From a virus: a DNA stretch of 11,433 nucleotides. Location of the stretch: UHGV virus genome UHGV-0104572. One strand, written 5' to 3'. A program made the position numbers and the translations under genes. The notes under the pieces were generated by a model, which was not told where the DNA came from, ran no database searches, and worked only from the letters and a program-made list of their open reading frames with translations. This document shows positions 6,968 to 9,370 of the stretch, piece after piece. Within the stretch, counting starts at the first letter, position 1; every line of letters begins with the position of its first letter.

Positions 6968-7051
6968 TTGTTAATTTTCCAATAGTGAATAGTTAGTTGA
7001 AAGGTATGCGTGGAAACGCATATGGCCTTAGTTGGTCAGATATCTTGGGGC

Positions 7052-7097
7052 TCGCTTTGTCAGCGACGTAGGACGAATGTCCATTGTGAAAAGAGCG
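7052..7097 (-). promoter_or_regulatory. nutR: boxA-like CGCTCTTTT plus boxB hairpin with GACAA loop
   Basis: Minus strand has CGCTCTTTT (plus 7089-7097; consensus boxA is CGCTCTTTA) and UCGCU-GACAA-AGCGA (plus 7052-7066), between cro and cII. The loop is the P22-type GACAA rather than the lambda GAAAA. Confidence 0.6.
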
Positions 7098-7104
7098 GTG
7101 TTAC

Positions 7105-7305
7105 TTATGCAGTTGTTTTTTTGTTACTTGGGAAGGGCTTTATTTCTTCCGCATAAACGCTTCCATCAGCGTTTATAGTTAAAAAAATCTTTCGGCCTGC
7201 ATGAATGGCCTTGTTAATCGCGCTTTGATATACGCCGAGATCTTTAGCCGTCTTGGTTTGCCCAAAGCGTATTGCATAATCTTTCAGGGTTATGCGTTGT
7301 TCCAT
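7105..7305 (-). CDS. cro: Cro repressor
   Basis: [66 protein letters not shown], 66 aa, is lambda Cro with about two conservative substitutions. TAAGGAGG precedes the start. Confidence 0.95.
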
Positions 7306-7329
7306 ACAACCTCCTTAGTACAGGCAACC

Positions 7330-7399
7330 ATTATCACCGCTAGAGGTAAAATAGTCAACACGCACGGTGTTAGAAGTTTATCCCTTGCGGTGATAGATT
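7330..7399. promoter_or_regulatory. OR1-OR2-OR3 operators with divergent PR and PRM promoters
   Basis: OR1 7332-7348 is TACCTCTaGCGGTGATA on the minus strand, one G>A change from lambda. OR2 7356-7372 and OR3 7379-7395 match lambda exactly. PR on the minus strand: -10 GATAAT (plus 7330-7335), -35 TTGACT (plus 7353-7358). PRM on the plus strand: -10 TAGATT (7394-7399); the cI ATG is at the expected leaderless start. Confidence 0.9.
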
Positions 7400-7405
7400 T
7401 AATGC

Positions 7406-8119
7406 ATGAGCGCAAAAAAGAAACCGTTAACACAAGAGCAGCTTGAGGACGCACGTCGCCTTAAAGCTATTTATGAAAAAAAGAAAAATGAGCTTGGCTT
7501 ATCCCAGGAATCTGTCGCAGACAAGATGGGGATGGGGCAGTCAGGTGTTGGTGCTTTATTTAATGGCATCAATGCATTAAATGCTTATAACGCCGCATTG
7601 CTTGCAAAAATTCTCAACGTTAGCGTTGAAGAATTTAGCCCTTCAATCGCCAGAGAAATCTACGAGATGTATGAAGCGGTTAGTATGCAGCCGTCACTTA
7701 GAAGTGAGTATGAGTACCCTGTTTTTTCTCATGTTCAAGCCGGGATGTTCTCGCCTGAGCTTAGAACCTTTACCAAAGGCGATGCGGAGAAATGGGTAAG
7801 CACAACCAAAAAAGCCAGTGATTCTGCATTCTGGCTTGAGGTTGAAGGTAATTCCATGACCGCACCAACAGGCTACAAGCCAAGCTTTCCTGACGGAATG
7901 TTAATTCTGGTTGACCCTGAGCAGGCTGTTGAGCCAGGTGATTTCTGCATAGCCAGACTTGGAGGTGATGAGTTTACCTTCAAGAAACTAATCAGGGATA
8001 GCGGTCAGGTGTTTCTACAACCACTAAACCCGCAATATCCAATGATCCCATGCAATGAGAGTTGTTCCGTTGTGGGGAAAGTTATCGCCAGCCAGTGGCC
8101 AGAAGAGACGTTTGGGTGA
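7406..8119 (+). CDS. cI: CI repressor (lambda immunity type, LexA-like self-cleaving)
   Basis: 237 aa, near-identical to lambda cI as recalled, with roughly four substitutions (for example T2A). The Ala-Gly cleavage site (VQAGMF), Ser in EGNSMT and Lys in FKKLIRD are all present, so it should be RecA-inducible. Confidence 0.95.
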
Positions 8120-8150
8120 TTGTTTTATTTTTCACGTAATAGGATGATTT

Positions 8151-8492
8151 ATGACACAATTTCAACTTGCATTAATCGCTAGAGAAGTTGATGGAGAAGT
8201 CATCCATCTTCGCACCAAAGACGGATACATCAATGCCACCGCGATGTGCAAGTCTGCGGGGAAGCTACTTGCTGACTATACACGACTAAAAACAACACAA
8301 GATTTTTTTGATGAATTATCACGCGATATGGGGATTCCCATATCGGAGTTAATTCAATCATTTAAAGGCGGAAGAGCAGAGAATCAAGGGACTTGGGTTC
8401 ATCCAGACATCGCAATTAATTTAGCTCAGTGGCTATCTCCAAAATTTGCAGTGCAAGTATCGAGATGGGTGCGTGAGTGGATGTCAGGTTAA
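8151..8492 (+). CDS. KilA-N domain protein in the rexAB slot
   Basis: 113 aa; AGGA lies 6 nt before the ATG. The segment GYINATAMCKSAGK...GTWVHPDIAINLAQWLSPKFAVQVSRWV matches my recollection of the KilA-N signature (GT[WY]VHP..A...A.W.SP.F...V). It starts 31 nt after the cI stop, where lambda carries rexA. Confidence 0.65.
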   Translation: MTQFQLALIAREVDGEVIHLRTKDGYINATAMCKSAGKLLADYTRLKTTQDFFDELSRDMGIPISELIQSFKGGRAENQGTWVHPDIAINLAQWLSPKFAVQVSRWVREWMSG

Positions 8493-8531
8493 AGAGCGCC
8501 TGCCGAACTCCCTATCCACCTTAAGCGGTAT

Positions 8532-8910
8532 ATGACAAACCGAGGCAGAGTTCCTCATACGCACTTTTCTATGCTTAATGAACTGACGTTTAACTTGGTT
8601 GCGCCACTTGAACAGGCCGGATATACGCTGCCAGAAAAAATGGTCCCTGATATTTCAGAGGGTAGGGTTTTCTCGCAATGGCTCCGTGACAACCGGGGGG
8701 TTGAGCCGAAGACATTCCCAACATATAACCATGAGTACCCAGATGGCCGGACATTCCCGGTACGTCTATACCCAAACGAATATTGCAGATTTCAAACAAT
8801 ACTTCAACGAAGTGTGGCTGCCTCAGTACGCTCCTAAATATTTTGCTGAACGAGACCAAAGGGCATTGACGTTGATTGAGAAAATCATGCTACCTGACCT
8901 TGATTCCTAA
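8532..8910 (+). pseudogene. Unknown ORF with a frame break (frame 0 for 8532-~8780, frame +1 onward to 8910)
   Basis: Two overlapping ORFs (8532-8837 and 8599-8910) each look protein-like only in complementary halves: ...RTFPVRLYPNEY in one, ADFKQYFNEVWLPQYAPKYFAERDQRALTLIEKIMLPDLDS in the other. The break is near 8778-8786, not at a homopolymer. The first half is in the same frame as the KilA-N ORF, separated by a single TAA and 13 open codons. Confidence 0.5.
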
Positions 8911-8918
8911 ATGTTATT

Positions 8919-8944
8919 CCCGGCCACAGAGCCGGGTTTTCTTT
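8919..8944 (+). terminator. t_imm-like rho-independent terminator
   Basis: cccggc-cacaga-gccggg followed by TTTTCTTT, 9 nt after the stop at 8910. Sequence from here to OL matches the lambda rexB-to-OL interval as recalled. Confidence 0.7.
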
Positions 8945-9096
8945 GCCTCACGATCCCCCTCACCCAAGAACACATAACCAATTGTATCTATTTGAAAATA
9001 AATAGATACAACTCACTAAACATAGCAGTTCAGATCTCTCACCTACCAAACAATGCACCCCTGCAAAAAATAAATTCATATAAAAAACATACAGAT

Positions 9097-9167
9097 AACC
9101 ATCTGCGGTGATGAATTATCTCTAGCGGTGTTGACATAAATACCACTGGCGGTGATACTAAACACAT
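9097..9167 (+). promoter_or_regulatory. OL3-OL2-OL1 operators and PL promoter
   Basis: OL3 9097-9113, OL2 9117-9133 (tatctctAgcggtgttg, one G>A versus lambda), OL1 9141-9157 (exact). PL -35 TTGACA 9131-9136 and -10 GATACT 9154-9159, reading rightward. Confidence 0.9.
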
Positions 9168-9227
9168 CAGCAGGACGCACTACTCACCAGGGCGGTGAAT
9201 ATACAACGATTCAAATATGAATCTACG

Positions 9228-9242
9228 GCGCTGACAAAGCGC
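9228..9242 (+). promoter_or_regulatory. nutL boxB (P22-type)
   Basis: GCGCUGACAAAGCGC is a 5-bp stem with a GACAA pentaloop, identical to the P22 nutL boxB as I recall it. It lies ~65 nt downstream of the PL start. I did not find a boxA upstream. Confidence 0.7.
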
Positions 9243-9370
9243 AATAACCAAAGTGAACTTTGGGGTGAATGCAGAAGCTAACCTTCTCGGCGGAGGCGCT
9301 TTGCAATGATTACGCTACCGGAGTTAGTCGCCCGGCTGTATTCACCGCCAAAGTTCACCAGGAGGTCTAT

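Follow-up and report, generated by a model that had tools for sequence, protein, structure and literature searches.

Positions 6968-9260 of the window, by which we mean the whole 11,433-nucleotide stretch of DNA analysed, are very probably a lambdoid early control region in which lambda immunity is flanked by nut sites and an N gene of the H-19B/HK97 type, with N dead in this copy. In the initial annotation the region had been described as hybrid circuitry, with the antitermination elements assigned to P22. Judged by its sequence, the partner module is misnamed 'P22-type', and its proper label is H-19B/HK97-type N/nut. Moreover, N is truncated at codon 43, and the 'hybrid circuitry' is therefore not a working N circuit here. 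The sequence identities, the hairpins, the joints and the truncation described below are direct observations.

Lambda-type immunity and its two joints

The cI repressor gene (7406-8119, + strand) is intact and of lambda specificity, its product being identical to lambda cI at 233 of 237 residues (98.3%) and to HK97 cI at 235 of 237. Cro (7105-7305, - strand) matches lambda Cro at 64 of 66 residues (97%). All six 17-bp operators were found in the order and with the spacing of lambda. On the right, OR1 (7332-7348), OR2 (7356-7372) and OR3 (7379-7395) occupy 7330-7395 and match lambda at 16, 17 and 17 of 17 positions; on the left, OL3 (9097-9113), OL2 (9117-9133) and OL1 (9141-9157) occupy 9097-9159 and match at 16, 16 and 17 positions, so that OR2, OR3 and OL1 are identical to lambda and the other three each carry a single mismatch. 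A promoter scan located PR (TTGACT-17-GATAAT at 7358-7330, with the -35 at 7353-7358 and the -10 at 7330-7335) and PL (TTGACA-17-GATACT, 9131-9159), and PRM is expected by homology to lie within the OR region. The region thus belongs to imm-lambda, both through the lambda DNA-binding sequence of cI and Cro and through tripartite operators that overlap PR/PRM and PL, and the original description of cI, cro, OR and OL as lambda-type and nearly identical is upheld. The cryptic element probably still confers lambda-type immunity, with cI expected from its sequence to act as the repressor.

Identity to lambda reaches at least 90% only in 7100-8099 and 9000-9149 (50-nt bins), and the lambda-type segment ends in short shared sequences. 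On the PL side, multi-phage comparison places the joint at CATCAGCAGGACGCACT (9165-9181, + strand), which is common to lambda, HK97, H-19B and BP-4795, 14 nt of it being also found in P22; by the +1 of the EF120460 annotation, PL transcription begins at 9166. Perfect identity to lambda continues up to 9181 and partial similarity to ~9198, in agreement with the earlier statement that similarity stops at about 9185-9195. On the PR side, multi-phage comparison and the identity bins place the joint at GCATAAGTAACACCGCT (7093-7110, - strand), a patch that begins at the cro stop codon, extends into boxA and is common to lambda-type and H-19B-type phages. It had been claimed that the modules were joined within tens of nucleotides of the promoters; this holds for PL but not for PR, where the joint comes after cro, ~215-230 nt from the PR start. 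The identity steps at the joints are sharp, and the broader claim that the immunity and antitermination modules differ in ancestry is upheld.

The combination has known counterparts. HK97, mEp234, HK106 and PhiR5_2 (AF069529, EF120460/EF120461, PV340546) have lambda-type cI, cro, OR and OL together with the same nutR, cII, nutL and N and the same two joints; the window is 96-98% identical to them over the common parts, and the G8A change in OR1 is also present in their immunity regions. There are differences as well. N is full-length (127 aa) in all four phages but cut at codon 43 in the window; the nutL-N leader of the window follows the H-19B/BP-4795 and not the HK97 version; and the window copy lies not in a siphovirus but in a P22-like remnant carrying immI. 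In the slot between cI and OL, PhiR5_2 has the same gene as the window, while HK97, mEp234 and HK106 are unlike the window, HK97 being also unlike the other two. The immunity regions of these coliphages were reportedly described by Degnan et al. (2007, Mol Microbiol 64:232), and the HK97 genome reportedly by Juhala et al. (2000).

The nut sites and the ancestry of the N module

Perfect 5-bp hairpins closed by a GACAA loop occur exactly twice in the window, both times on transcribed strands, one downstream of PR and the other downstream of PL. Dinucleotide shuffles give a chance level of 0.037 such hairpins per window, and a probability of 0.0005 for two or more. The nutR boxB, UCGCU-GACAA-AGCGA (TCGCTGACAAAGCGA in DNA; 7052-7066, - strand), is predicted to fold as a 5-bp stem with a pentaloop; it is the same in HK97 and H-19B and is equivalent to the boxB of EF120460, a GenBank entry in which the nut sites are annotated. 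The nutL boxB, GCGCU-GACAA-AGCGC (GCGCTGACAAAGCGC in DNA; 9228-9242, + strand; fold z = -3.3), is identical to that of H-19B and, at 15/15 positions, to the nutL boxB of P22. Positions, strands and folds are as first annotated, and the loops are not of the lambda type (GAAAA and GAAGA) that had been named as evidence to the contrary. Rfam at a permissive threshold gave no match for the nut sites, sar being its only report.

The sites lie at the same positions relative to PL and cro as in lambda. The nutR boxA (CGCUCUUUU; 7089-7097, - strand) is the homologue of the boxA annotated in EF120460 and is shared with lambda, aligning with lambda boxA CGCTCTTA; it reads CGCTCTTTT in the window versus CGCTATTTT in H-19B. 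Between boxA and boxB lie spacers of 22 nt (nutR) and 43 nt (nutL), both with predicted hairpins. That of nutR, GGAC-AUUC-GUCC (7071-7082, - strand), appears in both the MFE and the centroid folds, is identical in H-19B, and supplies the dyad symmetry that H-19B-type nut sites typically show, the H-19B nutR being described with two hairpins (PMC3526286). That of nutL, GAUUCA-AAUA-UGAAUC (9208-9223, + strand), has an A at one stem position where H-19B has a G, and a G-U pair is still possible. With both boxB and both spacer hairpins predicted, the pairing of a GACAA boxB with a dyad-symmetric spacer is that of H-19B/HK97-type nut sites; the nutR elements are those of H-19B and HK97, and the stem position just mentioned is the sole difference of nutL from H-19B.

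Over the nut/N region, the DNA matches H-19B, BP-4795 and HK97 at 98-100% identity, and these nucleotide matches suffice to identify the module. On the PR side, nutR is 100% and cII 99% identical to HK97; cII (6671-6967, - strand; Pfam Phage_CII, E = 6e-33) is only 37% identical to lambda cII and hence is not of lambda type. On the PL side, BP-4795 and PhiR12_1 match the window at 98% from nutL up to and including N codon 43, and H-19B (AF034975) is essentially identical over this stretch and the leader back to the PL start. In these three phages cI and cro are non-lambda, and H-19B differs from the window in its operators also. The N/nut antitermination system of this Shiga-toxin phage was reportedly described by Neely and Friedman. 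It has also been studied by the Sen laboratory (PMC3526286, PMC4499122), and the 127-aa length and mutant positions published for H-19B N (R3, S11, R15, R18 and L108) match the present sequence type.

A direct lambda x P22 hybrid, with N and nut taken from P22 and a working circuit of P22 specificity, would agree with several features. The GACAA pentaloop on a 5-bp stem is shared with the gene 24/boxB system of P22, and this much of the 'P22-type' claim stands. HK97 N matches PF25694, a Pfam family constructed around P22 gp24, with 57.8 bits, whereas lambda N matches PF11438; the full-length relatives also share the C-terminal LP.VALYAAG.RKSKQ.TAR with P22 N, and P22-like immI, gp16 and a tailspike head-binding domain are found in the same window. 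In the arginine-rich motif, where F-x-G-N-x-[KR]-x-R-R-x-E-R is common to P22 N and the window N, the latter agrees with P22 at 8/18 positions and with lambda at 6/18, retaining the RRRER core of lambda N but having Asn for its Trp18; the motif is thus P22-like as claimed, but only modestly so. At the DNA level, however, the hybrid is already contradicted. P22 gave no alignment at 7000-7750 or 8050-9600, which covers the nut/N region, and 9228-9353 has weak similarity (74-76%) to phage L-like Salmonella phages. The overall identity of HK97-type N to gp24 is 43%, compared with the threshold of at least 92% used for gp24-like specificity in PMC2629481, and the BLASTP similarity of HK97 N to gp24 is significant only in the C-terminal 33 residues, a part missing here. 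The His that contacts the flipped-out C in P22 (NMR complex PDB 1A4T, Cai et al. 1998, as cited in PMC12550061) is Arg in the window N. The nutR boxB of P22 is CCGCCGACAACGCGG, the boxA-boxB spacers of the window are longer than those of P22 and, unlike them, contain hairpins, and P22 immunity is c2 rather than lambda cI. Together with the near-identity to H-19B, BP-4795 and HK97 and the truncation of N, these points make the hybrid exceedingly improbable. Direct P22 ancestry of nut/N is ruled out by the missing DNA alignment, the boxB motif alone being held in common.

A truncated N gene in a decayed prophage

The N gene of the window, here N' (9371-9538, + strand), consists of 43 native codons, identical to H-19B N (127 aa) in their product, after which come 12 foreign codons and a stop, giving 55 aa. 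Comparison with HK97 N and the recT gene of E. coli 042 places the deletion joint at 9499-9501 (+ strand), where N codon 43 is fused (9499/9500) to the interior of recT at codon ~56; the fusion is out of frame, and the 12 added codons are recT sequence. In an intact relative, strain OkiPb01678, the gene order is N ... kil ... recT-gp157, and therefore ~2.3 kb has been removed. Proteins of this type comprise an N-terminal arginine-rich motif, a central NusA-binding part and a C-terminal RNA polymerase-binding part; N' retains the first, while the putative NusA-binding motif and the predicted polymerase-binding part are lost. Pfam N_peptide gives N' 24.8 bits, under the cut-off of 27.9; a PDB sequence search with the 43 native residues found no match, and NCBIfam has no model matching any N protein. 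PHROGs places the lambda, P22 and HK97 N proteins all in phrog_271 and does not discriminate the types. The truncation is absent from the initial annotation. On the evidence of its reading frame, the N gene of this copy is almost certainly a dead pseudogene, with N function presumably lost. The nut sites are therefore orphaned, and the element has no N antitermination of its own.

The window as a whole is a decayed, cryptic P22-like prophage remnant. It has kept cI, cro and the operators, immI (mnt, arc, sar and ant), sieA and the tailspike gene; replication, lysis and head genes are gone, as is most of Q. The P22-type immI region reported earlier is confirmed: divergent mnt and arc-ant operons with sar are arranged as in P22, with Arc identical at 52/53 residues (98%), Mnt at 77% and Ant at 60%, and sar scores 81.8 bits in Rfam (gathering score 43). 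Between cI and OL, in the slot of lambda rexAB, lies a bstA-like pseudogene (8151-8910, + strand; Pfam KilA-N), in which a TAA stop has been created at 8490 and 2 nt have been deleted at ~8782; its intact 253-aa homologue in PhiR5_2 is identified as BstA by PADLOC (E = 2.5e-20). It is followed by an intrinsic terminator (8919-8946, + strand) found by terminator scan, the homologue of the Timm annotated in EF120460.

It might be asked whether the truncation of N and the odd joints are assembly or sequencing artefacts, the real element being HK97-like with N intact and the circuit working. The N'/recT joint rests on one sequence, since it was found neither among 5,426 complete E. coli genomes nor among the GTDB species-representative genomes, and an artefact is possible in principle; the joints at 6133 and ~6460 are likewise absent from the complete E. 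coli genomes. However, the window carries several further independent lesions (truncated int, truncated gp16 and an inverted Q fragment, besides the two in the bstA-like gene), and related remnants at argW in E. coli strains 81 and EC2641 are also decayed, with deletions, IS insertions and frameshifts of their own and with the same bstA-like nonsense mutation. The decay of this prophage lineage is therefore real, and an artefact is very unlikely as the explanation. Alternatively, the 55-aa N' might be functional, either as a minimal antiterminator or as an RNA-binding decoy at the GACAA boxB of incoming H-19B/P22-type phages. It preserves an intact arginine-rich motif, start codon and ribosome-binding site, each the same as in H-19B, some residual or changed activity is conceivable, and an N-nutR interaction alone helps to overcome Rho near the nut site (PMC3526286). 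Nevertheless, removal of residues 78-127 from H-19B N reduces read-through from 34% to 8%, a level similar to that of arginine-rich-motif point mutants (PMC3526286), and N' ends already inside the motif aligned with the NusA-binding segment of lambda N (HRP|TLS vs NRPILS), to be continued by out-of-frame recT codons; moreover, the gene lies behind PL, which cI represses in a lysogen. We consider a functional N' exceedingly improbable.

The favoured reading, lambda immunity flanked by an H-19B/HK97-type module with N dead, can be put in terms of an intact relative, in which cI bound to OR and OL would hold PR and PL off. Upon derepression, the PL transcript would bear nutL and the PR transcript nutR, and N, whose specificity for this boxB is suggested by the published H-19B work, would modify RNA polymerase through its C-terminal part such that downstream terminators are read through. 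The mosaic itself would have formed by recombination in two short sequences conserved among lambdoid phages, one comprising the initial 16 nt of the PL transcript, the other reaching from the cro stop codon to boxA. In this copy, the deletion after N codon 43, with its out-of-frame fusion to recT, would have ended the function of the module.

Distribution and significance

The union of lambda immunity with H-19B/HK97-type N is an ordinary natural mosaic, common and already described. The two joints are present in 111 and 118 of the 5,426 complete E. coli genomes (~2%), some at 100% identity. The region is a textbook case, and a clean one, of modular exchange among lambdoid phages, with little import beyond annotation: two short conserved sequences, the PL transcript start and the cro stop codon-boxA stretch, delimit the immunity cassette, and precisely there one and the same N/nut module adjoins both lambda-type and H-19B-type repressors. 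For annotation, the module should be recorded as H-19B/HK97-type rather than P22, N as a pseudogene and the element as a cryptic prophage.

Finally, we note a highly unlikely scenario in which the remnant responds in trans. After SOS cleavage of cI, N from a co-resident or infecting phage of the H-19B/BP-4795 type would antiterminate the PL and PR transcripts of the remnant, which carry truncated recT, gp157 and cII; conversely, N' with its 43-aa arginine-rich-motif peptide would compete for boxB and dampen the early gene expression of that phage. The orphaned nutL and nutR are themselves intact and like those of H-19B-type Shiga-toxin phages, save for the one nutL spacer-stem position.

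Lambda immunity in H-19B/HK97-type DNA

The initial annotation described a lambda-type immunity region joined to N and nut elements of P22 type. The lambda part is borne out: CI agrees with lambda at 233 of 237 residues and Cro at 64 of 66, and the six operators all occur, arranged as in lambda, with OR2, OR3 and OL1 identical to lambda and a single mismatch each in OR1, OL2 and OL3. In a promoter scan of the control region, PR and PL were the only sigma-70 matches. OL2 (9117-9133) has a central G8A change absent from lambda, HK97, mEp234 and PhiR5_2; the same G8A in OR1 (7332-7348) is common to all HK97-like lambda-immunity phages examined.

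The ancestry of the adjoining module was addressed by plotting identity in 50-nt bins along the window against lambda, HK97, BP-4795, PhiR12_1 and P22. Lambda identity is at least 90% only in 7100-8099 and 9000-9149; it is 82% in bin 9150-9199, 50-58% over nutR and nil past ~9270. HK97 identity is 94-100% between ~6460 and 8115 and returns to that level from 9100, broken only by a divergent leader (9260-9345). For BP-4795 and PhiR12_1, identity is 96-100% over nutR/cII and 9200-9499 and 54-60% over the OL operators, with cro, OR and cI unalignable. P22 DNA gave no alignment in nutR, nutL or N. Judged from these bins, the immunity cassette runs from ~7093 to ~9181 and is set in early-region DNA of H-19B/HK97 type, not of P22. 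Along its whole length, segment 9166-9499 shares 98% identity with BP-4795, PhiR12_1 and an Stx1a phage; from the PL start to the N start codon the alignment with H-19B is almost base for base, and the first 43 residues of N are those of H-19B N (127 aa). Published H-19B mutant positions (R3, S11, R15, R18, L108; PMC3526286, PMC4499122) agree with this N sequence type.

The features that suggested P22 are nevertheless present. The window has two perfect 5-bp stems capped by a GACAA loop, and no more: one at 9228-9242 (+), downstream of PL, and one at 7052-7066 (-), downstream of PR, both on the transcribed strand and both recovered in the predicted fold; chance predicts 0.037 per window, and two or more arise in 0.05% of dinucleotide shuffles. 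The nutL boxB equals that of P22 at 15 of 15 positions, whereas the lambda loops are GAAAA and GAAGA. HK97 N matches PF25694, the Pfam family built on gp24, the P22 N protein (57.8 bits, against 152 for gp24 itself), whereas lambda N falls in PF11438. Identity between the HK97/H-19B-type N and gp24 is 43% overall, with BLASTP-significant similarity only in the C-terminal 33 residues. The arginine-rich motif of the window's N matches P22 at 8 of 18 positions and lambda at 6 of 18; its F-x-G-N lead-in is that of P22 and the Trp18 of lambda is absent, but the P22 His that touches the flipped-out loop C (PDB 1A4T) is Arg here. Membership of the same broad family as P22, with the same boxB loop, is thus supported; P22 ancestry and specificity are not established. 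Under the rule of at least 92% identity used for P22-like phages (PMC2629481), this N is of a different type from that of P22. The original interpretation is partly supported: the two modules differ in ancestry and meet at sharp joints, but the partner of the lambda cassette is of H-19B/HK97 type, not P22.

The joints were placed by aligning the window, lambda, HK97, H-19B, BP-4795 and P22, and both fall in short patches common to several phages. On the PL side, lambda and HK97 match upstream of 9165, and H-19B, BP-4795 and HK97 downstream of 9181; the 17-nt patch, CATCAGCAGGACGCACT, begins 1 base before the PL start (9166) and is common to lambda, HK97, H-19B and BP-4795, with 14/17 in P22. 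The PR-side patch, GCATAAGTAACACCGCT (about 7110-7093), comprises the stop codon of cro and the first part of boxA, and this joint lies directly after cro, ~215-230 nt from the PR transcript start (~7323, set by homology with lambda). The joints had been put within tens of nucleotides of the promoters, which holds at PL but not at PR. H-19B and BP-4795 carry the same N/nut module with unrelated repressors, joined at the same two points, the mark of modules exchanged at conserved boundary sequences.

The pairing of lambda immunity with an H-19B/HK97-type N/nut module is already described and common. It also occurs in HK97, mEp234, HK106 and PhiR5_2, and the mEp234 record (GenBank EF120460) annotates pL, pR, pRM, OL1-3, OR1-3 and boxA and boxB of both nut sites at homologous positions, together with a 'boundary sequence'. 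The record comes from Degnan et al. 2007, a study of wild phages of lambda immunity specificity, which PMC8585504 cites for exactly such mosaicism. Among 5,426 complete E. coli genomes, with probe coverage of at least 80%, a 211-nt OL-PL-nutL probe matched 111 and a 221-nt nutR-cro probe 118, several matches being 100% identical. Strain OkiPb01678 has an apparently intact prophage with the same arrangement, in the order N ... kil ... recT-gp157.

Truncated N and intact nut sites

The truncated N gene (N', 9371-9538, +) escaped the initial annotation. The separate ancestry of the modules stands, but the N arm of the circuit is defective here. The native frame stops at 9499, and from 9501 onward the DNA matches the interior of E. 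coli 042 recT at 99.5% identity, beginning ~168 nt into the gene. N enters recT out of frame and meets a stop 12 foreign codons later, so that its product is 55 aa long instead of 127. The break (HRP|TLS) lies within the segment aligned to lambda NRPILS, which we take to be NusA-binding. The entire C-terminal domain, assigned to RNA polymerase binding in published work, is deleted. H-19B N without residues 78-127 drops from 34% to 8% read-through, like RNA-binding point mutants (PMC3526286). Together, the truncation and these data make it very probable that N' is inactive and the intact nut sites orphans.

Both nut sites have a small predicted hairpin in the boxA-boxB spacer (7071-7082 and 9208-9223). 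Neely & Friedman, in 2000, reportedly found such spacer dyad symmetry characteristic of H-19B nut sites, and H-19B N is said in the same work to require NusA, not NusB, S10 or boxA. Two hairpins have been noted in H-19B nutR (PMC3526286). Folding also predicts a small hairpin, UCACC-AGGGC-GGUGA, early in the PL transcript (9184-9198, +), directly behind the putative nutL boxA; lambda, judged by eye, appears to have a similar stem there, CACC-AUGAA-GGUG.

State of the prophage

The ORF map, Pfam domains and BLAST hits to reference phages identify a lambdoid prophage, in which transcription from PL runs along the + strand and that from PR along the - strand. The HK97-like block starts at ~6460 and includes cII (6671-6967, -); then follow nutR, cro (7105-7305, -), OR, cI (7406-8119, +), a broken KilA-N/BstA-like gene (8151-8910, +), OL and PL, nutL and N'. 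Beyond N' lie a recT that lacks its N-terminal part, a gene of the Gp157 family, a 45-aa ORF (10723-10860, +) and the last 154 codons of a lambda-type integrase gene (10919-11383, +; Pfam Phage_integrase). The window contains no replication, nin, lysis or head genes, only the C-terminal part of gp16 (4981-6129, -), and Q solely as an inverted 335-nt internal fragment of P22-type gene 23 (6133-6467). The tyrosine integrase, lambda-like by eye, has lost its N-terminal half, so the remnant probably cannot excise.

The exact joints of the window were found in no other genome searched; E. coli strains 81 and EC2641 carry related remnants with different lesions at argW, which argues for real decay over artefact. 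The gene 23 fragment, between truncated gp16 and the HK97-like block, is 93.7% identical to P22 37323-37657 and covers the region to which the P22 annotation assigns the a23 antisense promoter and a C1 binding site; a 1.1-kb probe over its joints reached 80% coverage in none of 5,426 E. coli genomes. The KilA-N gene fills the slot held by rexAB in lambda. In PhiR5_2 the homologous gene is intact, and its 253-aa product is a PADLOC hit to the BstA abortive-infection family (E=2.5e-20). The copy in the window is a pseudogene, with a TAA stop created at 8490 and 2 nt lost at ~8782; the 113-aa stub is also annotated in strains 81 and EC2641.

The annotated P22-type immI region is confirmed: ant (2169-3092, -), arc (3162-3323, -) and mnt (3414-3668, +) encode proteins 60%, 98% and 77% identical to those of P22. 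Since sar RNA (3094-3161, +; Rfam RF00262, 81.8 bits) is full length between arc and ant, immI looks complete, and possibly functional, within an otherwise decayed prophage. A 193-aa ORF (3665-4246, +) overlaps the mnt stop codon, with a 69-aa ORF (4204-4413, -) opposite it, before sieA (4392-4958, +); neither ORF has a Pfam or PADLOC match, and the 193-aa protein is annotated as hypothetical in strain 81 too. In the tailspike encoded at 50-2068 (-), residues 1-113 match the head-binding domain of P22 type (222 bits), and DNA similarity to P22 gene 9 is confined to the part encoding this N-terminal domain. The rest appears unrelated to the gene 9 product, which would imply another O-antigen target.
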